NCBI GenBank assembly: GCA_017450215.1
Contig: JAFSVH010000101.1
Coordinates: 1,534-65,533 of the forward strand
Direction of reading: 5' to 3'
Length of the DNA stretch: 64,000 nucleotides
Source of the DNA: Bacilli bacterium
GTDB taxonomy: Bacteria; Bacillota_I; Bacilli_A; ML615J-28; CAG-698
The notes beneath the pieces were generated by a model, which made no database searches, was not told where the DNA came from, and saw only the letters and a program-made list of their open reading frames with translations. Each line of letters opens with the position of its first letter. Within the stretch, counting starts at the first letter, position 1. The translations under genes and the position numbers were made by a program. Shown here in pieces: positions 3,445 to 32,579 of this stretch.

Positions 3445-4382
3445 TGATAATCACCTACCTCATTGATAAATTTAAATATCTTATCTAATTGGCTATAATC
3501 ATATTTATATGTTAATTTATAACCATTTATTTTATTTTTATCTATTAATTCCTTTATTTGTATAATTTCCTTATTGAGCTCACTTTTTGTTAATGTATCA
3601 TAATCATAAACATTTTTTAAAAAATAACAAAACAACTCTGATTTACTTATTTTTTCTATTATAGGAAAATCACTTAATTCATTATTTTCTAAAATAATAA
3701 AATTGTATTTAAAGCTTTTTTCTTTAACCCAATCACTATGATTGTAAATTTCTAAATTAATATATTTTTTATTCTCACCTAATAATGAACTATAGACACA
3801 ATTTGTATCTATACTATTAATAATATTTTTAAAACTATCCTCCCATAATCTTACAACTTTAGAACCTGCTAATATTTCAAAATTATTATTAAAAACTATT
3901 TTATCATCACTAATTAAACCATAATTATGATTTTTCACCAAATAAGATGCAATTGTTGACTTTCCCAATCCTGATTTTCCTATTAATGCAAAAACTTTAT
4001 TTTTATTATAAATAGCAGTACCATGTATAACAAAATTATTATTAAAACGTAAAAGACTTATCAGACCATTTCCCATAGAAATCCTATATAGCAACTCATT
4101 TCTTTCAGGAAAATCATTTTTCTTATCATAATATATTAATATATTATCTTTGTCTATTTTCATCTCAATTCCAGTCTTGTAAAAAAACACTTTTTCTTTT
4201 TTATTAGAAAATATTTTTGAAATTTTATTTTCTATTAATTCACTTTTTTCTTTATACTTAAATGCTCTTTTAGATAGCATTATTCTTATTGTTTTTGAAT
4301 ATGGGTGCTGAACAGTGTCGAAATTATTGATATTAAACTCTGTCAACACCATCATATCATATATATAGCATACATTGTCCAT
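3441..4382 (-). CDS. HPr kinase C-terminal-domain-like P-loop kinase (HprK-related)
   Basis: HGTAIYNKNKVFALIGKSGLGKSTIASYL resembles the HPrK/P P-loop. The ORF track starts at TTG 4403. I prefer ATG 4382, which is preceded by GAGGAGAAA. Confidence 0.6.
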   Translation of the reverse strand: MDNVCYIYDMMVLTEFNINNFDTVQHPYSKTIRIMLSKRAFKYKEKSELIENKISKIFSNKKEKVFFYKTGIEMKIDKDNILIYYDKKNDFPERNELLYRISMGNGLISLLRFNNNFVIHGTAIYNKNKVFALIGKSGLGKSTIASYLVKNHNYGLISDDKIVFNNNFEILAGSKVVRLWEDSFKNIINSIDTNCVYSSLLGENKKYINLEIYNHSDWVKEKSFKYNFIILENNELSDFPIIEKISKSELFCYFLKNVYDYDTLTKSELNKEIIQIKELIDKNKINGYKLTYKYDYSQLDKIFKFINEVGDYQ

Positions 4383-4555
4383 TTTCTCCTCTTCTCGAAT
4401 CAACTCTATATTTTACATTGTATTTAAAATATTCAATATCAAAGAATCACATAATAATTTTTTTAAACACAGTTATTTAAGAAATCCTACTCTAAAAAAC
4501 ATATAGCTTTATTTATATTTTACTTGAATAACCTAATTAAAAATATACATCACGA

Positions 4556-25140: not shown

Positions 25141-26100
25141 ATGAATGATAGACTAAGAACAAACGAAACTTTACCCGATTTTGTTTCTACTCAGCATAAT
25201 TATCATACATTAGATTATTATTTTAAAAAGAAATACAATTCTAAAGTATTTAAAGTTGCCTTGAATGGTGACTTTTCTTGTCCGAACAGAGATGGCACTA
25301 TCTCTAAAGATGGTTGCATCTTTTGTAGTGACAAGGGAAGCGGAGAATTTGCTGGAGATAAACAAGATCCATTAAAAATTCAATTTAATAAAATTAAGGA
25401 CATAATTCATCTTAAATGGAAGGATGCTTTATACATTGCCTATTTCCAAGCAAATACTAACACTTATGCACCTTTATCAAAATTAAAGCGATTATTTGAA
25501 GAAGCAATTAATCTTGATAAAAACATTGTGGCAATTGACATTGCAACTAGACCAGATTGCTTATCAAGTGAATGCTTAGATTTTTTAGCTGAATTAAACA
25601 CTAGATGTAAAGTAATAGTCGAACTAGGACTACAAACCATCCACGAAGAAACAGCAATATTAATAAATCGTGGTTATAATTTAAATTGCTTTACTGAAGC
25701 AGTAAAGAAATTAAGGGAAAGAAAAATTGAAGTAATTGTCCATATTATTAATGGATTACCTCATGAAAGCTATGAAATGATGCTAGAGACTGCCTCATTC
25801 TTAGCTCATCAAGATATCCAAGGAATTAAGATTCATTCTTTATATATATTAGAAGGAACAAAAATTGCTTCAATGTATAAAAGCAATGAATTTAAGGTGC
25901 AAACTTTAGATGAATATGTGAAAACTGTGGCAAATCAACTTACTCTTTTAAGAGAAGATATTGTAATCCACAGAATAAATGGAGACCCACCAAAAGAGGC
26001 TCACATAGCCCCTGATTGGTGCTTAAAAAAGTTCGTTATTATGAACGAAATTGATAAATATATGAAGAAAAACGGACTCGTTCAGGGAGCACGTTTTTAG
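25141..26100 (+). CDS. radical SAM protein, TIGR01212 (YhcC-like) family
   Basis: FSCPNRDGTISKDGCIFC cysteine motif characteristic of this family. Confidence 0.8.
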   Translation: MNDRLRTNETLPDFVSTQHNYHTLDYYFKKKYNSKVFKVALNGDFSCPNRDGTISKDGCIFCSDKGSGEFAGDKQDPLKIQFNKIKDIIHLKWKDALYIAYFQANTNTYAPLSKLKRLFEEAINLDKNIVAIDIATRPDCLSSECLDFLAELNTRCKVIVELGLQTIHEETAILINRGYNLNCFTEAVKKLRERKIEVIVHIINGLPHESYEMMLETASFLAHQDIQGIKIHSLYILEGTKIASMYKSNEFKVQTLDEYVKTVANQLTLLREDIVIHRINGDPPKEAHIAPDWCLKKFVIMNEIDKYMKKNGLVQGARF

Positions 26101-26179: not shown

Positions 26180-26208
26180 TTGACTATACTTTTTTTGTTT
26201 GTTATACT
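26180..26208 (+). promoter_or_regulatory. nrdD promoter TTGACT-17-TATACT
   Basis: TTGACT at 26180-26185, 17-nt spacer, TATACT at 26203-26208. Confidence 0.5.
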
Positions 26209-26253
26209 GACTATACATTGTGAATATAATAGAAAATGGAGGGGTATGTTATA

Positions 26254-28626
26254 ATGTTAAACGTGAAAAAAAGAAACGGTGAAATCGTTGCTTTTGACAT
26301 TACAAAAATTGAAAAAGCAATTGAACAAGCCTTTAAATCCGTAAAGCGTGAATACTCAAAAGACATGTTAGAATTACTTGCTTTAAGAGTAACCGCTAAC
26401 TTTACAGAAAAAATACAAAATGGTGTTATATCTGTAGAAGACATCCAAGATAGTGTTGAAATTGTGTTGATTCAATCACAATTTGTGGATGTTGCAAAAT
26501 CTTATATTATTTATAGAAAACAACACGAAAAAATTAGAAATACTAGAAAGACTATTCTAGATTATAAAGATACAATTAATAATTACCTAAAAATAAATGA
26601 CTGGAGAGTAAAAGAAAATTCTACAGTTACTTATTCAGTTGGTGGTTTAATCCTATCAAATTCAGGTGCATTAACTGCTAATTATTGGTTAAGTGAAATC
26701 TATGATTCTGAAATTGAAGAAGCACATAGAAATGCTGATATTCATATTCATGACTTATCAATGTTAACAGGTTATTGTGCAGGTTGGTCATTAAAGCAAT
26801 TAATCAAAGAAGGTTTAGGCGGTGTTCCAGGAAAGATTACTTCTGCTCCTGCTGCTCACCTTTCTACTTTATGTAATCAAATGACTAACTTCTTAGGTAT
26901 TATGCAAAATGAATGGGCTGGAGCTCAAGCTTTCTCATCATTTGATACATACCTTGCACCATTTGTAAAAGCTGACAACTTAACATACAAAGAAACAAAG
27001 CAATGCATCCAATCTTTCATTTATGGTGTTAACACTCCTTCTCGTTGGGGTACACAAGCACCATTCACTAACATCACACTTGACTGGGTTGTGCCAAATG
27101 ATATGGCTGAGTTAAATGCAATCGTTGGTGGAAAAGAAATGGATTTCAAATATAAAGATTGCGTTAAAGAAATGGCAATGGTAAACAAAGCTTTCATCGA
27201 AATCATGATTGAAGGTGATGCTAATGGCCGTGGCTTCCAATATCCAATCCCTACATATTCTATCACTAGAGATTTTGATTGGAGTGATACTGAAAACAAT
27301 CGTTTATTATTTGAAATGACTGCTAAATATGGAACTCCATACTTCTCTAATTATATAAATTCAGATATGGAACCAAGTGATGTAAGAAGCATGTGCTGTA
27401 GATTACGTCTTGACTTACGTGAATTACGTAAAAAATCAGGTGGTTTCTTTGGTAGTGGTGAATCAACTGGTTCAGTTGGTGTAGTTACACTTAATATGCC
27501 TCGTCTAGCATATTTATCAAGTGATATAGATGACTTCTATAAGAGATTAGATCACTTACTAGACATTTCAGCAAGATCATTAAAGATTAAACGTGATGTC
27601 ATCACTAAATTCTTAGATGCTGGTCTTTATCCTTATACTAAACGTTATTTAGGCACATTCAATAACCACTTCTCTACAATTGGACTAGTTGGTATGAATG
27701 AATGCTGCTTAAATGCAAAATGGTTAAAGAAAGACTTAACTCATAAAGATAGTCAAGAATTTACAAAAGATGTTCTAAACCACATGAGAGAACGCCTAAA
27801 AGATTACCAAGAAAAATATGGCGACCTTTATAACTTAGAAGCAACTCCAGCAGAATCAACAGCTTATAGACTTGCTAAACACGATAAGAAGAGATTCCCT
27901 GACATCATTACTGCTTCTGATGGTGATGCTACTCCATATTATACTAATAGTTCTCATTTACCTGTTGGTTATACAGATGACATCTTCAAAGCTTTAGATG
28001 TTCAAGATGAATTACAAACACTTTATACATCAGGAACTGTTTTCCATACATTCTTAGGTCAAAAGCTTCCTGATTGGAAGTCTTGTGCTAAATTAGTTAG
28101 AAAGATCGCTGAAAACTACAAGCTTCCTTATTATACAATGTCTCCAACATATTCAGTATGTTCTAAACATGGTTACATTGAAGGCGAAGTTTATATTTGC
28201 CCTGAATGCGGAAGAAAGACTGAAGTATATAGTAGAATAACTGGTTACTATCGTCCTGTTCAAAACTGGAATGATGGAAAGACTGAAGAATTCAAGAGTA
28301 GACGCACATATATAATTGAAACTTCAAAGATGAAGAGAAAAACACATGAAGATGAAGCTTTAGAATGTGCACAACCAGAAGCAAAGGAAATGTCAGATAA
28401 GTTGTTATTATTTACTACTCCTACATGTCCTAATTGCAAAATGGCTAAAGCAATGTTAAAGAATGCAAATATTGATTATGTATCAATAGATGCAGAAGAA
28501 AACAAAGATACAACTTTAAAATTCGGTATTAAAAAAGCACCAACATTATTAGTTCCAACTGAAAATGGTTATGAATATTTTGATAATGCTAGTGAAATTA
28601 AGAGATATATCGAAAGTAGAAAATAA
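26254..28626 (+). CDS. nrdD: anaerobic ribonucleoside-triphosphate reductase (class III) with C-terminal glutaredoxin/NrdH-like domain
   Basis: N-terminal ATP-cone, glycyl-radical motif SRITGYYRP, zinc ribbon CPECG. Extra ~75-aa C-terminal domain LLLFTTPTCPNCKMAK...APTLLV at about 28402-28623. Start at ATG 26254 (GGAGG upstream) rather than track start 26236. Confidence 0.9.
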   Translation: MLNVKKRNGEIVAFDITKIEKAIEQAFKSVKREYSKDMLELLALRVTANFTEKIQNGVISVEDIQDSVEIVLIQSQFVDVAKSYIIYRKQHEKIRNTRKTILDYKDTINNYLKINDWRVKENSTVTYSVGGLILSNSGALTANYWLSEIYDSEIEEAHRNADIHIHDLSMLTGYCAGWSLKQLIKEGLGGVPGKITSAPAAHLSTLCNQMTNFLGIMQNEWAGAQAFSSFDTYLAPFVKADNLTYKETKQCIQSFIYGVNTPSRWGTQAPFTNITLDWVVPNDMAELNAIVGGKEMDFKYKDCVKEMAMVNKAFIEIMIEGDANGRGFQYPIPTYSITRDFDWSDTENNRLLFEMTAKYGTPYFSNYINSDMEPSDVRSMCCRLRLDLRELRKKSGGFFGSGESTGSVGVVTLNMPRLAYLSSDIDDFYKRLDHLLDISARSLKIKRDVITKFLDAGLYPYTKRYLGTFNNHFSTIGLVGMNECCLNAKWLKKDLTHKDSQEFTKDVLNHMRERLKDYQEKYGDLYNLEATPAESTAYRLAKHDKKRFPDIITASDGDATPYYTNSSHLPVGYTDDIFKALDVQDELQTLYTSGTVFHTFLGQKLPDWKSCAKLVRKIAENYKLPYYTMSPTYSVCSKHGYIEGEVYICPECGRKTEVYSRITGYYRPVQNWNDGKTEEFKSRRTYIIETSKMKRKTHEDEALECAQPEAKEMSDKLLLFTTPTCPNCKMAKAMLKNANIDYVSIDAEENKDTTLKFGIKKAPTLLVPTENGYEYFDNASEIKRYIESRK

Positions 28627-28641
28627 AAAAGAGATTAAATT

Positions 28642-29556
28642 ATGTATGATATCCTAATTATAGGTGCAGGAGCAGCAGGTATGACTGCTGCTCTTAATGC
28701 ACTAAGAAACAATAAAACTGTATTAGTAATAGAAAAAGAAACAATCGGTGGACAAATTGCCTCTTCACCAAAAGTAGAAAACCTTCCATCAATCAAAGAA
28801 ATCTCTGGTGTAGATTTTTCAAGTCAACTATATGATCAAATAGAAGCATTAGGATGTGAATTTGATTTTGATGAAGTTAAATCAATTGAAAAAATCGATG
28901 AAGGCCACTTCAAAATAATATCTGAATACAATGAATATGAAGCTAAATCAGTTATCATTGCAAGTGGAGTTAAACATCGTCATCTAAATGCTATCAATCA
29001 TGATTTATTAGATGGTAGAGGCATATCTTATTGTGCAGTATGTGATGGTGCCTTTTACAAAGATGAAATCGTCAGCGTAATCGGAGATGCTAATACTGCT
29101 TTACAATATGCACTTCTTCTCGCTAACACATCTCTTAAGGTATATTTATGTTGTCTTTTCGATAAATTATTTGCTGATAAAATCTTAATTAATCGTGTAA
29201 TAAAAAATCCAAGAATTGAAATAACTTATAATATTTCTCTTCTTGAATATTTAAAAGATGACAATAATAAACTTAAAGGTTTAAGGTTTGAAGATACTAA
29301 AACTAAAAAAGAAATAATCTTTGATTGCAAAGGCTGTTTTGTTGCAATAGGACAAATCCCTGACAATGAAAAATTCTCTAATTTAGTAGACTTAGAAAAA
29401 GGTTTTATCAAAACTAATGAATTGTGTGAGACAAAAACAAAAGGCTTATATGCTATTGGTGATTGTAGAGTTAAAACGCTTAGACAGGTTTCTACTGCTG
29501 TAGCTGATGGCGCTATTGCTGCCTTTTATGCAATTAATTATGTTGATTCTTTATAA
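28642..29556 (+). CDS. thioredoxin-reductase-like flavoprotein (CAVCDG redox centre), NADPH-binding motifs degenerate
   Basis: FAD motif IIGAGAAG and redox-active CAVCDG. VIGGGDSA is replaced by VIGDANTA and the HRRD Arg pair by CCLFD. Confidence 0.8.
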   Translation: MYDILIIGAGAAGMTAALNALRNNKTVLVIEKETIGGQIASSPKVENLPSIKEISGVDFSSQLYDQIEALGCEFDFDEVKSIEKIDEGHFKIISEYNEYEAKSVIIASGVKHRHLNAINHDLLDGRGISYCAVCDGAFYKDEIVSVIGDANTALQYALLLANTSLKVYLCCLFDKLFADKILINRVIKNPRIEITYNISLLEYLKDDNNKLKGLRFEDTKTKKEIIFDCKGCFVAIGQIPDNEKFSNLVDLEKGFIKTNELCETKTKGLYAIGDCRVKTLRQVSTAVADGAIAAFYAINYVDSL

Positions 29557-29565
29557 AAAAGAATG

Positions 29566-29604
29566 TGACTTGTATCAAAAATAGATACAAGCCACTTTTT
29601 TTAT
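29566..29604 (+). terminator. bidirectional terminator between the converging nrdD-trxB-like and nrdG operons
   Basis: CTTGTATC-aaaaata-GATACAAG stem, flanked by a T-run on plus and an A-run upstream. Confidence 0.55.
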
Positions 29605-30623
29605 TTAAATAAATGTCCTTCTATAACTTTCACAATTTTTTCTAAATTAACTTTATCATTATCAGAGAATCTATAAAAAGATGGACTATCAATATCCAAA
29701 ACACCATAAATATCATTACCATTATAAATTGGAATAACAATTTCAGATTTAGATCTTGCATCACAAGCAATATGACCATCAAACATCAAGACATTACCAA
29801 CAACTAATGTCTTACCTAGTTCTACACTTCTAAAGCAAACACCACGACCACGTTTTAAAACTGTACATGCAGGTTCACCCATAAATGGTCCTAACAATAA
29901 TTCATCATTTTTATATAAATAAAAACCTAACCAATTAATATTATCTATATTATGATAAAGCAAACTTGCTGTGTTTGCTAAAACGGAAATATCAAAATTA
30001 ACATCATTATTCAAACTATCAACATTAGTTATTAATTCTTTATATTTATCTACTTTATAACCAAATACTTTTGCTAAATTAGAATTCTTATAATCACTAT
30101 CTAAGCTTACATCGCTATAGATATAAATATCATAATATTTAGTAAATACTTTTTCTATTTTCTCTTTAATAGCATCATTTACTTCATCTACTTCAATCTC
30201 ACATGTAAAGAATTCAGTTTTTAAATTTAAATATTCATCAAATTCAAATTTTAATACTTTATTTTCATTCTTCTTATCAATTTGAACTTCATCAATAAAT
30301 CTATTCTTTAAAACGAAACTTTCAATATTATCTTCTTTAATTAAATCATTAAAAACTAATTCACTTATCTCTTTTTCGTATTCTTTTCTAGAATAGAGAA
30401 CAGATTTAGTCTTTAATGTTGCAACGTATTTCACATTATTACTAATTATCTTTCTAACTCTAATTGTATGAATAGATTGGAAATTTAAATCATCAAATAT
30501 ATTGCTTAAAATAAAAACAACTTCTTTATTACGTTTCAAATAATATTGACTAATATTAATTGGATTATTTAATTTATCAGGTAATATATTAATTCTATAT
30601 TTTAATTCAGTTTCAACAGCCAT
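29601..30623 (-). CDS. CYTH-domain / free methionine-(R)-sulfoxide reductase (GAF, fRMsr) fusion protein
   Basis: N-terminal ETELKYR (CYTH ExExK) and FTCEIEVDE. C-terminal WLGFYL...GEPACTVLKRGRGVCFRS...FDGHIACDARSKSEIVIP...GVLDIDS matches fRMsr including its three Cys. RBS AAGAGGT. Starts 1 nt after the nrdG stop. Confidence 0.75.
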   Translation of the reverse strand: MAVETELKYRINILPDKLNNPINISQYYLKRNKEVVFILSNIFDDLNFQSIHTIRVRKIISNNVKYVATLKTKSVLYSRKEYEKEISELVFNDLIKEDNIESFVLKNRFIDEVQIDKKNENKVLKFEFDEYLNLKTEFFTCEIEVDEVNDAIKEKIEKVFTKYYDIYIYSDVSLDSDYKNSNLAKVFGYKVDKYKELITNVDSLNNDVNFDISVLANTASLLYHNIDNINWLGFYLYKNDELLLGPFMGEPACTVLKRGRGVCFRSVELGKTLVVGNVLMFDGHIACDARSKSEIVIPIYNGNDIYGVLDIDSPSFYRFSDNDKVNLEKIVKVIEGHLFK

Positions 30624-30624
30624 T

Positions 30625-31323
30625 TTAATAACCTCTTAAATATACATTATCTACATATTCACTTAATATGTCTTTATATTTATTAGCTTCTTCTAAACTA
30701 ATTTCATGAAACCCACCTTTTATGCAGGTACCATGATCAACAAATTTTTGTAAATAAAGTTTCTTTGCTCCTTTTACAAGCTTTCCCATTTTTTTGATAT
30801 TTTCTTCATCATGAAATTCTTTAATTAAAGTAGTTCTAAATTCATAATCAATCACATCGCTCTTTAAATAATCGATAGTTTCTTGAATCTTGTTAAAATC
30901 AAAAGATTCAACACCTATTGTCTCATTATATCTTTCTTTTGAATTCTTAATATCCATAGCAACATAATCAATTAATTTTTCTTCAACTAATTCTCTTAAC
31001 AATTTTAAATTAGAACCATTAGTATCAAATTTAATAAAATATCCGATTTCCTTTATCTGTTTTAATTTTTCCTTTAATCCTTCCATTAATGTTGGTTCAC
31101 CACCACTAATGACAACAGCATCTAGCATCTTCTTTCTTAATTTAAGATAATCTAAGATTTCGTCAAAATCAAAATAAGGATATCTTTTATAATCAATAAC
31201 TAAAGCAGAATTATGACAATATGGACATCGAAAATTACATCCTCCAGTAAATAAGGATGCGCATAAAAAATCATTTAAATCAACTAAAGATAATTTTTCA
31301 AATCCATAAAATTCTTTACTCAT
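30625..31323 (-). CDS. nrdG: anaerobic ribonucleotide reductase activating protein (radical SAM)
   Basis: TGGCNFRCPYCHNS cluster motif typical of NrdG/PflA-type activases. Confidence 0.85.
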   Translation of the reverse strand: MSKEFYGFEKLSLVDLNDFLCASLFTGGCNFRCPYCHNSALVIDYKRYPYFDFDEILDYLKLRKKMLDAVVISGGEPTLMEGLKEKLKQIKEIGYFIKFDTNGSNLKLLRELVEEKLIDYVAMDIKNSKERYNETIGVESFDFNKIQETIDYLKSDVIDYEFRTTLIKEFHDEENIKKMGKLVKGAKKLYLQKFVDHGTCIKGGFHEISLEEANKYKDILSEYVDNVYLRGY

Positions 31324-31382
31324 AAAAGCCTCTTTATTATTTTTATAAAACTGGCAATAATAACATTGCCAGTTTCATATTA

Positions 31383-32579
31383 TTATTTATTGATAAAATA
31401 ATTCTTAATTTCTTCTACTTTATCTACTTTTTCCCAACTAAATTCATCTTCACCGAAGTGACCATAATTTGTTGTTCTAGCATAGATTGGAGTTCTTAAT
31501 TTCAAATGCTTAATTAATCCACCTGGAGTAAGTGGGAAGATAGCTCTAACCATTTTAATTAATTCATTATCACTATATTTACTTGTACCAAATGAATCTA
31601 CTCTAACTGAAGTAGGTTCAGCAACGCCAATAGCATAACTAACTTGTACTTCAACACGTGAAGCAATGCCACTTGCAACTATATTTTTTGCAATATATCT
31701 CATCATATAACAAGCACTACGGTCAACCTTTGAAGGATCCTTTCCAGAGAAAGCACCACCACCATGATGAGCAATTCCACCATATGTATCAACAATAATC
31801 TTTCTTCCAGTCAAACCGCTATCACCTACTGGTCCACCAATACAAAATCTACCAGTAGGATTGATAAGATATGTAGTCTTTTCATCTATCAATTCTTTAG
31901 GAATTACATATTCAATTACATTTTTAATAATGTAATCTTTTAAAAATTCCATATCTACATCTTCTGTGTGTTGAGTTGATAATACAACATTATCTACTCT
32001 TTCCATTTTTCCATTTTTATATTCAATTGTAACTTGTGCTTTTCCATCAGGACGTAAGAATTTAGCACCATTCTTTCTAAGTTGAGCAAGTCTATGTGTT
32101 AAATCATGAGCAAATCTAATAGTTGCAGGCATTAATTCCTTTGTTTCTGTACATGCATAACCAAACATCATACCTTGGTCGCCTGCACCTTTATCATCCC
32201 CAACACCTAAATTAATATCTGGAGATTGACCAATCAATCTAACTTGAATAGGAATAGTATTACCATTAAATCCTAATTCATCATTATCATAGCCAACATC
32301 GCATATTACTTTTCTAGCTATTTTTTCTGGATCAACTTTTTCAAAATTATTACAAGTTATTTCACCAAAAATAACAACAGCATCAGCACAAGCTATTACT
32401 TCACAAGCAACATGAGCTTTTTCATCAACAGATAAATAAGCATCCAAAATTGAATCAGCTATTTTATCACATAATTTATCTGGATGTCCTTCAGTTACTG
32501 ACTCAGATGTAAATAATATTGAGTCATCTTTAATTAAATTTTTTAATTCTTTTGATTTTTCAAGTTTTTGTTCTTTCAT
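31383..32579 (-). CDS. metK: S-adenosylmethionine synthetase
   Basis: GHPDKLCDKIADSILD and GGGAFSGKDPSKVDRSA. Confidence 0.95.
   Translation of the reverse strand: MKEQKLEKSKELKNLIKDDSILFTSESVTEGHPDKLCDKIADSILDAYLSVDEKAHVACEVIACADAVVIFGEITCNNFEKVDPEKIARKVICDVGYDNDELGFNGNTIPIQVRLIGQSPDINLGVGDDKGAGDQGMMFGYACTETKELMPATIRFAHDLTHRLAQLRKNGAKFLRPDGKAQVTIEYKNGKMERVDNVVLSTQHTEDVDMEFLKDYIIKNVIEYVIPKELIDEKTTYLINPTGRFCIGGPVGDSGLTGRKIIVDTYGGIAHHGGGAFSGKDPSKVDRSACYMMRYIAKNIVASGIASRVEVQVSYAIGVAEPTSVRVDSFGTSKYSDNELIKMVRAIFPLTPGGLIKHLKLRTPIYARTTNYGHFGEDEFSWEKVDKVEEIKNYFINK

Follow-up and report, generated by a model that had tools for sequence, protein, structure and literature searches.

Introduction

Re-reduction of class III ribonucleotide reductases (RNRs) has been mapped in part: for each of the formate, thioredoxin, and NrdH/ferredoxin routes, one or a few enzymes are known. 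By which route does a class III RNR obtain its electrons when it carries a redoxin-like domain of its own? The question is raised by a 64,000-nt stretch of a Bacilli bacterium genome (GenBank assembly GCA_017450215.1, contig JAFSVH010000101.1, positions 1,534 to 65,533 of the forward strand; hereafter the window, with coordinates given within it). Here, the nrdD gene at 26254–28626 (plus strand) encodes a class III RNR with a C-terminal domain containing a CPNC motif, and is followed by a gene resembling those of thioredoxin reductases (TrxRs). A first-pass annotation of this DNA had proposed that the extra domain is glutaredoxin/NrdH-like and supplies thioredoxin-type electrons in cis, in keeping with the TrxR-like gene.

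We consider it likely that the window encodes a thiol-dependent class III RNR of the NrdD2 type, with a protein reductant fused to it and a dedicated reductase encoded alongside. Four observations carry this reading, namely, the identity and fold of the added domain, the conservation of its redox residues, the chemotype of the active site, and the conserved operon.

Residues are numbered from the methionine encoded at 26254 (790 aa). Relatives of the window NrdD were collected in a scan of one genome per species (at least 598 relatives), and the best 80 of these, 73–80% identical to the window NrdD, make up the set of loci. Redox-residue counts refer to an alignment of 81 sequences, and reductase motif counts to 66 full-length copies encoded downstream of fused nrdD genes. 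Invariance of the N-terminal MLxVKKR, C175, and E529 was read from an alignment of homologues at least 79% identical to the query. Protein databases were compared through the 120 closest clusters, the best of 8000 scored candidates, and through the best 150 of the representative proteins clustered at 50% identity. The AlphaFold2 model of the redoxin domain covers aa 696–790 and was built from an alignment of 53 diverse sequences. NrdD subtypes are defined as in PMC4493059 and PMC9669993.

A class III RNR with an added thioredoxin-fold domain

The fused gene and its domains, with model confidence given as the predicted local distance difference test (pLDDT), are as follows:

26254..28626, plus strand: nrdD::redoxin fusion gene, 790 aa plus stop
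26260..26529, plus strand: ATP-cone, aa 3–92 (Pfam PF03477, E 4.5e-21; pLDDT 81–90 in the full-length model)
26614..28311, plus strand: class III RNR catalytic core including the glycyl-radical domain, aa 121–686 (Pfam PF13597, NRDD)
28159..28209, plus strand: zinc ribbon C636-x2-H639...C649-x2-C652, from the alignment to solved NrdDs
28243..28245, plus strand: glycyl-radical residue G664 in RITGYYRP, aligned to T. maritima RIVG621YLVP and P. copri RITGYLVG; 81/81
28315..28401, plus strand: net-acidic linker, aa 688–716, with one cysteine (C705); variable and poorly conserved
28402..28623, plus strand: thioredoxin-fold (glutaredoxin-like) domain, aa 717–790, 74 aa (Pfam, AlphaFold2, Foldseek)
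28426..28437, plus strand: redox motif C725-P-N-C728; C725, P726, and C728 81/81, N727 79/81
28537..28545, plus strand: cis-Pro loop A762-P763-T764; A and P 81/81, T 80/81; directly N-terminal to strand beta3 in the AlphaFold2 model

The protein is encoded by an uninterrupted open reading frame (ORF; 26236..28626, plus strand), of which the product from the ATG at 26254 is 790 aa long. It belongs to the class III RNRs (NrdD) by its family scores, its RxxGY motif and zinc ribbon, and the presence of an encoded NrdG. The NRDD family PF13597 scored 635 bits (E 1.4e-190, cut-off 26.2), the NCBIfam equivalog NF006126/PRK08270 scored 1135 bits (cut-off 548), and TIGR02487 scored 514.6 bits (cut-off 326.35). 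The NF006126 match ends at aa 687, and the nearest non-fused relatives (~50% identical) end 2–20 aa past the conserved R-x-x-Y that follows the glycyl-radical motif; the ~100 further C-terminal residues of the window protein are thus an add-on. Pfam, the end of the NF006126 match, and the alignment agree on the architecture described in the first-pass annotation, in which a CPNC domain follows the glycyl-radical motif, zinc ribbon, and linker.

Within the add-on, Pfam detected Glutaredoxin (PF00462, aa 718–752, 34.5 bits, gathering cut-off 22.9) and, overlapping it, Thioredoxin (PF00085, aa 713–771, 25.6 bits, cut-off 23.5). AlphaFold2 modelled aa 716–790 with a pLDDT of 93–97 as beta-alpha-beta-alpha-beta-beta-alpha, placing CPNC at the start of helix 1. 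A Foldseek search of the PDB with this model returned 140 matches at E ≤ 1e-3. The 50 listed were all of the thioredoxin fold, mostly thioredoxins and PDI domains, with a probability of 1.00 to thioredoxins, and the thioredoxin bound in the B. subtilis RNR complex (9bxs_E) was among the matches. By sequence, the closest solved protein was the small M. jannaschii thioredoxin 1FO5 (E 5.5e-5). The extension therefore models as the thioredoxin fold that had been predicted for it.

The CPNC cysteines, whose conservation in orthologues had been put forward as a check, are present in all 81 homologues, and so is the cis-proline. The redoxin domain is only 38–69% identical overall and the linker is essentially unconserved, whereas C725, P726, C728, A762, and P763 were each found in 81/81, a pattern that points to purifying selection on the redox residues.

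Which kind of redoxin this is was addressed with curated subfamilies. NrdH-redoxins are marked by CVQC and a WSGFRP-type motif, and glutathione-dependent glutaredoxins of the Grx3/GrxC type by CPYC, TVP, and GG-x-DD. The domain reached no curated NCBIfam subfamily cut-off: it scored 34.7 bits against the MJ0307 family TIGR00411 (cut-off 92.75), 35.1 against YruB TIGR02196 (88.55), 27.7 against Grx3 TIGR02181 (90), and 25.9 against NrdH TIGR02194 (85.75). We rejected an NrdH identity on the missed TIGR02194, the CPNC motif, and the lack of a WSGFRP-like segment, and a glutathione-type glutaredoxin identity on the missed TIGR02181, APT in place of TVP, and the lack of GGxDD. Of the earlier label "glutaredoxin/NrdH-like", the first half holds (PF00462, 34.5 bits) and the second is not supported; "glutaredoxin-like thioredoxin-fold domain" is the accurate name.

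The linker measures ~29 aa in the window protein (median 30 aa in the homologues) and has a pLDDT below 50 in both models. The number of cysteines in it varies: 35 of the 81 homologues have at least two, the window protein has one (C705), and 30 homologues have none. Nearly all of the 35 multi-cysteine linkers contain a closely spaced pair, typically C-x-C-E, with CC or CxxC in a few. Class III RNRs have been described as having no external shuttle cysteine pair (PMC4390871), and the linker pair may be a candidate for such a shuttle.

The active site carries a thiol-type signature

The subtype of an NrdD can be told from its finger-loop motif, a beta-A cysteine, and a glutamate, with MGCR marking the formate type and xCCR the thiol-capable enzymes (PMC4493059, PMC9669993). 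The corresponding residues of the window protein are:

26776..26778, plus strand: beta-A cysteine C175 (GYCAGWSLK), equivalent to T. maritima C125 (YC125FAY) in the alignment; invariant
27391..27402, plus strand: double-cysteine finger loop M380-C381-C382-R383, aligned to T. maritima S328-C-C-R331
27838..27840, plus strand: E529 (YNLEATPAE), aligned to T. maritima FNIE495QVPAE; invariant

The MCCR finger loop was retained in 80/81 homologues. In the same HMMER alignment, the formate-type P. copri NrdD (8P23) has MGCR and no glutamate (...SILATPAE). The window core thus has both sequence marks of NrdD2, a third cysteine in xCCR and a glutamate equivalent to E495, which in T. maritima NrdD is the proposed proton donor (PMC9669993). 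It departs from NrdD1 in having MCCR and the glutamate, sharing only the methionine with the formate type, and from NrdD3, which has a third cysteine but neither the glutamate nor the methionine (QCCR/A; PMC9669993), in having both Glu529 and Met380. The NrdD2 chemotype is thioredoxin-dependent according to the summary of Wei et al. 2014 in PMC4493059. As MCCR, the beta-A cysteine, and the glutamate together define the thioredoxin-using subtype, the core carries a full NrdD2-type signature, from which thiol dependence is predicted. The comparison with formate- and thioredoxin-dependent subclasses proposed in the first-pass annotation therefore came out on the thiol side (MCCR, C175, E529), with Met380 also kept.

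The activase is encoded 2 kb from the operon on the opposite strand, and in most related loci a homologue lies inside the locus:

30625..31323, minus strand: nrdG, radical S-adenosylmethionine (SAM) activase (TIGR02495 NrdG2, 191 bits, cut-off 131.15)

One related locus, L019, from a Eubacteriales metagenome-assembled genome, encodes a second NrdD (positions 133–2340, 737 aa) just upstream of nrdG and the fused nrdD. This second protein has MGCR and no redoxin domain, so a formate-type and a thiol-type class III RNR appear to be encoded side by side. The pair fits two enzymes that would use different reductants in a division of labour.

A TrxR-like partner with a degenerate nucleotide site

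The gene immediately downstream of nrdD, to which the first-pass annotation had pointed, begins 15 nt after the nrdD stop codon and is syntenic in 68 of the 80 loci, with a gap of at most 15 nt in 43 of these 68. Its features are:

28642..29556, plus strand: low-molecular-mass TrxR-like flavoprotein, 304 aa (Pfam Pyr_redox_2)
29014..29043, plus strand: redoxin-binding G125-R-G, then redox-active C131-A-V-C134; CxxCDG in 66/66
29083..29175, plus strand: degenerate NAD(P)H site, with GDANTA(LQ) for GGGxxA(xE) and VYLCCLFDKLFA for VxxxHRRDxxRA
29569..29600, plus strand: terminator-like hairpin and T-run ending the nrdD–trxB-like operon, bidirectional with the convergent gene

The terminator behind this gene, together with a promoter-like site ahead of nrdD, supports a shared operon. 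The best PDB matches of the flavoprotein were NADPH thioredoxin reductases (207 bits). It scored 279.5 bits against the TrxB equivalog TIGR01292, below the cut-off of 343.45, and does not qualify as that equivalog. Motifs for flavin adenine dinucleotide (FAD) binding, CxxC, G[R/K]G, and NADPH binding have been listed for TrxRs, together with criteria for the D. vulgaris TRi (PMC5627308), and criteria for non-NAD(P)H thioredoxin reductases in Clostridia are also available (PMC10880999). The window reductase has kept the FAD motifs GAGAAG (GxGxxG) and GLYAIGDC, the GRG redoxin-binding motif, and the CAVCDG redox centre. By the published criteria (PMC10880999, PMC5627308), it would be classed among the thioredoxin reductases that do not use NAD(P)H. 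With both NAD(P)H motifs missing from the predicted reductase, this organism is unlikely to run a classical NADPH-driven chain.

The 66 reductase copies fell into three groups. Ten were of the canonical NADPH type (GGGxxA and HRR), 34 kept GGGxxA without HRR (QNL...TGE instead), and 22, including the window copy, were without both motifs. Different lineages thus seem to have altered the nucleotide site while the gene kept its position. When the ORFs of the whole window were scanned for motifs, no ferredoxin-type or WCGPC-type match came up, and there was no obvious donor gene beside the operon.

The fusion is widespread in gut and rumen Firmicutes

The database search for the same fusion, suggested as a follow-up in the first-pass annotation, found it very widely. 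All of the best 80 loci, out of at least 598 relatives, align to the last residues of the query. They come from Christensenellaceae, Oscillospiraceae, Lachnospiraceae, Ruminococcaceae, and uncultured Bacilli/Erysipelotrichaceae of the gut and rumen. Among the proteins, the 120 closest clusters of the 8000 scored all combined ATP-cone, NRDD, and Glutaredoxin domains (120/120); where NCBI names these clusters, the name is just "ribonucleoside triphosphate reductase". Of the best 150 representatives clustered at 50% identity, 17 had a C-terminal redoxin domain, and distant versions carried CPRC or CQNC. Far from being rare, the fusion abounds among Clostridia and Bacilli of the gut and rumen.

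Some representatives deviate from the common architecture. P0197 (782 aa) is asparagine-rich and 47% identical to the query over its full length, with a redoxin-like domain that has no CxxC; neither the xCCR finger loop nor RxxGY was found in it by pattern, and it may be a degenerate copy. In the range P0177–P0325, many NrdD representatives are 1000–1880 aa long and match the query in two to four separate stretches, and several have no contiguous finger-loop motif. These long proteins, including the redoxin-fused P0177, P0178, P0180, P0181, and P0188, would most simply be explained by inteins in nrdD.

Entries with a stand-alone redoxin were considered as a split ancestral form and rejected, as most proved to be artefacts: L081 has an N-gap, and in L083 nrdD is broken into three pieces by frameshifts. 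The split in L082 comes down to one frame change, within one metagenome contig, and cannot be relied on. Among the stand-alone redoxins examined, only L084 provides a convincing free-standing redoxin–reductase pair. There, positions 3788–4467 encode a 100-aa CPNC redoxin directly followed by a TrxR-like protein 57% identical to that of the window. The pair comes after DUF2828/DUF7788 genes, and the 3.7 kb ahead of it contain no nrdD, so redoxin and reductase also travel together on their own.

Start site, promoter, and neighbouring genes

Two upstream features concern expression of the fused gene:

26180..26208, plus strand: promoter-like site TTGACT-17-TATACT with a TG-extended -10, upstream of nrdD; 10/12 consensus matches
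26238..26242, plus strand: ribosome-binding site GGAGG, 11 nt before the ATG at 26254, by sequence

The start at ATG 26254, as the first-pass annotation had assumed, is correct, and 26236 is not the start, because GGAGG lies 11 nt upstream and all homologues begin with MLxVKKR. The promoter-like site is the better of two plus-strand sites reaching 10/12; it is a consensus match only, and overall the region holds no more sites of this kind than expected from shuffling. The octamer GACTATAC occurs twice, at 26182–26189 and 26209–26216, 27 bp apart and flanking the -10 of this site, and the GACTATAC pair may be a candidate operator. With an NrdR-box consensus, we found no match near or upstream of nrdD and one elsewhere, against 3.07 expected by chance.

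Upstream of nrdD, 25141–26100 (plus strand) encodes a radical-SAM tRNA-modification enzyme, MnmL/YtqA (TIGR01212, 361 bits). Beyond the terminator, 29601–30623 (minus strand) encodes a protein of 340 aa that Pfam matches as GAF only and NCBIfam not at all. Its N-terminus bears an ExExK signature (ETELKY), which we take to be CYTH-like. The motif GHIACD..SKSEIVIP in its C-terminal GAF domain resembles that of free methionine-R-sulfoxide reductases, which are thioredoxin-dependent enzymes. Next come nrdG and, on the same strand, metK (SAM synthetase, by eye from the sequence), together spanning 30625–32579 (minus strand). With MnmL/YtqA, nrdG and metK would make up a small SAM-related gene cluster around the RNR operon. 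Nearly all other genes of the window are on the minus strand. Between 24001 and 30000, the GC skew leaves its strongly negative level only across the plus-strand genes, from the radical-SAM gene to the trxB-like gene, where it is near zero or slightly positive.

Discussion

Taken together, the observations suggest the following cycle. NrdG would install the glycyl radical at G664. In each turnover, C175 and one of C381/C382 would be oxidised to a disulfide, with E529 as the proton shuttle. We infer that the redoxin domain reduces the active site during turnover: carried after the glycyl-radical domain on a flexible acidic linker of ~29 residues, the CPNC domain would re-reduce the disulfide by dithiol–disulfide exchange. 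The flexible linker would permit it to reach its own subunit or the partner subunit. The co-transcribed TrxR-like flavoprotein would then recycle the CPNC domain through its CAVC pair and FAD. The donor to the flavoprotein in the window lineage is probably not NADPH, and a low-potential carrier (ferredoxin or flavodoxin) is a candidate. At the computational level, the thioredoxin-type electron supply proposed in the first-pass annotation is thus supported, although through Met380 the enzyme could still use formate.

Several points weigh against this cycle. A folded redoxin would have to reach a buried active-site disulfide, and the full-length AlphaFold2 model, built from an alignment at least 79% identical to the query, was confident for the ATP-cone and redoxin domain only (mean pLDDT 55.9, predicted template modelling score 0.43). 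Met380, the methionine of formate chemistry, is retained in the finger loop. Twelve of the 80 loci had no adjacent reductase gene (two of the 12 with too little downstream sequence), so the nrdD–reductase pairing is not obligatory. The case for a donor other than a pyridine nucleotide is limited to the subclass of the window reductase (22/66), which is itself nearer to NADPH enzymes (207 bits) than to the solved ferredoxin-dependent FFTRs (6GNA, 114 bits); ferredoxin as the donor is a guess. Finally, the literature searched yielded no biochemistry on any member of the fusion group.

Some of these points suit other roles for the domain. The redoxin could serve activation and maintenance, holding cysteines in the zinc-ribbon and glycyl-radical domain, or thiols elsewhere on the surface, in the reduced state for NrdG, for instance after transient oxygen, while formate or free thioredoxin supplies the catalytic electrons. 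Such a role would suit the attachment of the redoxin directly after the zinc ribbon and glycyl-radical segment as well as the retained Met380, and it has a precedent in E. coli, where thioredoxin plays an activating part for a class III RNR that depends on formate (Padovani et al. 2001, cited in PMC4390871). We nevertheless regard it as improbable: the fused enzymes carry the full thiol signature of MCCR and the glutamate, the sole single-cysteine NrdD seen (the MGCR protein of L019) is without the domain, and a dedicated reductase in the operon implies sustained electron flux rather than occasional repair. Quite improbable, too, is a dual-reductant enzyme that draws mainly on formate, via the Cys–Met thiosulfuranyl route, when it is available and falls back on the redoxin and reductase when formate is poor. 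Most double-cysteine enzymes keep the methionine, and MCCR with the glutamate gives them the components for either formate or thioredoxin (PMC9669993); the genomes in which the fusion has no adjacent reductase gene also fit a back-up role. However, the formate-type NrdD beside the fused enzyme in L019 would be redundant if the latter used formate well, and the invariance of CPNC and the cis-proline across the 81 homologues speaks for a domain in steady use, not one needed only at times.

There is next to no probability that the fusion is an artefact of annotation or assembly, with nrdD and a small redoxin gene joined by sequencing error, or a remnant without function. The database entries with a stand-alone redoxin after nrdD and the different reading frames of the two parts in L082 might seem to speak for such a reading, but the examined stand-alone cases came down to an assembly gap (a run of N in L081) or a fragmented gene (the three pieces of L083). 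The fusion is a single ORF in all 80 species-level genomes retrieved and in 120/120 of the closest protein clusters, and its redox residues are strictly conserved; together, these refute the artefact and remnant reading.

Compared with the NrdD2 enzymes of Neisseria bacilliformis and Thermotoga maritima (4U3E/4COI), the window enzyme has the same double-cysteine loop, beta-A cysteine, glutamate, and glycyl radical with NrdG, and is predicted to share the thioredoxin-fold dithiol reductant. Theirs, however, is a separate general-purpose thioredoxin with its reductase, whereas the window has a fused redoxin and an operon-encoded reductase. The window NrdD also differs from these two enzymes (SCCR) in keeping the methionine (MCCR) and in having an N-terminal ATP-cone, and it resembles T. 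maritima NrdD only modestly in sequence (140 bits). A private chain is also said to exist in Methanosarcina barkeri, where the NrdD3 reportedly described by Wei et al. in 2015 works with a glutaredoxin-like NrdH and a ferredoxin:disulfide reductase. As far as secondary citations go, that system resembles the window in its dedicated redoxin and non-pyridine-nucleotide reductase. On the same footing, it differs in that its redoxin is separate and its reductase is of the iron–sulfur ferredoxin:thioredoxin-reductase type, unlike the low-molecular-mass TrxR-family flavoprotein of the window. The active sites differ as well, with the glutamate and MCCR in the window against QCCR and no glutamate in M. 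barkeri.

The redoxin domain itself is most like the MJ0307-family small thioredoxins and YruB-family proteins, which gave the best sequence matches and share the minimal fold of ~75 aa, CPxC, and a hydrophobic cis-Pro loop; with scores far under both cut-offs, it is not a member of either, and unlike them it is a domain of a larger enzyme. Fusion of a glutaredoxin-like CxxC domain to an RNR subunit has a characterised parallel in the Grx::ATP-cone::NrdB of Facklamia ignava, in which the fused glutaredoxin was shown to be the RNR reductant (Rozman Grinberg et al. 2018, PMC6187632). That is a class I enzyme with a glutathione-dependent, grxC-type domain fused N-terminally to the radical-generating subunit, whereas the window protein is of class III, with a non-glutathione redoxin at the C-terminus of the catalytic subunit and a TrxR-like partner. 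Table S1 of the same study lists, but does not study, one Glutaredoxin:NrdD fusion from Lachnospiraceae bacterium TWA4 (subclass NrdDd; PMC6187632). In a search for a characterised NrdD–redoxin fusion, this one-line listing was all that the literature searched gave, and we found no later work.

The window reductase can be set beside the NAD(P)H-independent TrxRs, that is, the clostridial and cyanobacterial FFTRs (6GNA), D. vulgaris TRi (5NII), and the T. acidophilum enzyme (3CTY). As in these, FAD, CxxC, and redoxin binding are intact and GGGxxA/HRRDxxR are missing. It is distant from them all, with 138 bits for 3CTY, 114 for FFTR, and 83 for TRi where NADPH enzymes reach 207, and its replacements are GDANTA and LFDKLFA where TRi has GEGxxA and TQGK. 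Since same-position orthologues in other taxa are of the canonical NADPH type, its loss of the NAD(P)H site looks like an event independent of the known non-NAD(P)H TrxRs.

A wider reading can be drawn from this. In a large share of gut and rumen Firmicutes, there could be a self-contained electron chain for making deoxyribonucleoside triphosphates without formate or NADPH, running from a low-potential donor (ferredoxin or flavodoxin) through an independently evolved TrxR-like flavoprotein without NAD(P)H motifs and a tethered redoxin to the active-site disulfide. The linker CxC of ~40% of homologues would then act as an external shuttle disulfide, the first known for any class III RNR. We hold this combination to be rather doubtful.

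Thiol-dependent NrdDs and redoxin–RNR fusions are both established, and current understanding is not overturned by this locus. Three things are apparently absent from the literature searched: how widespread the fusion is, how consistently a dedicated reductase accompanies it, and that many of these reductases have lost their NAD(P)H site. A caution for annotation follows: the fused proteins are named only "ribonucleoside triphosphate reductase", and the neighbouring reductase falls under the TrxB cut-off. Through the fusion, thiol-type NrdD is coupled to one particular redoxin, and as a rule to one particular reductase, in each of the 80 species-level genomes retrieved and across thousands of related protein clusters of gut and rumen anaerobes. 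The fusion also brings to light an orphan reductase family that has lost its NAD(P)H site, and it offers a testable system for how a protein reductant gains access to the buried active site of a glycyl-radical RNR. For the gut and rumen bacteria concerned, the presence of the fusion would predict which anaerobes make DNA without depending on formate.

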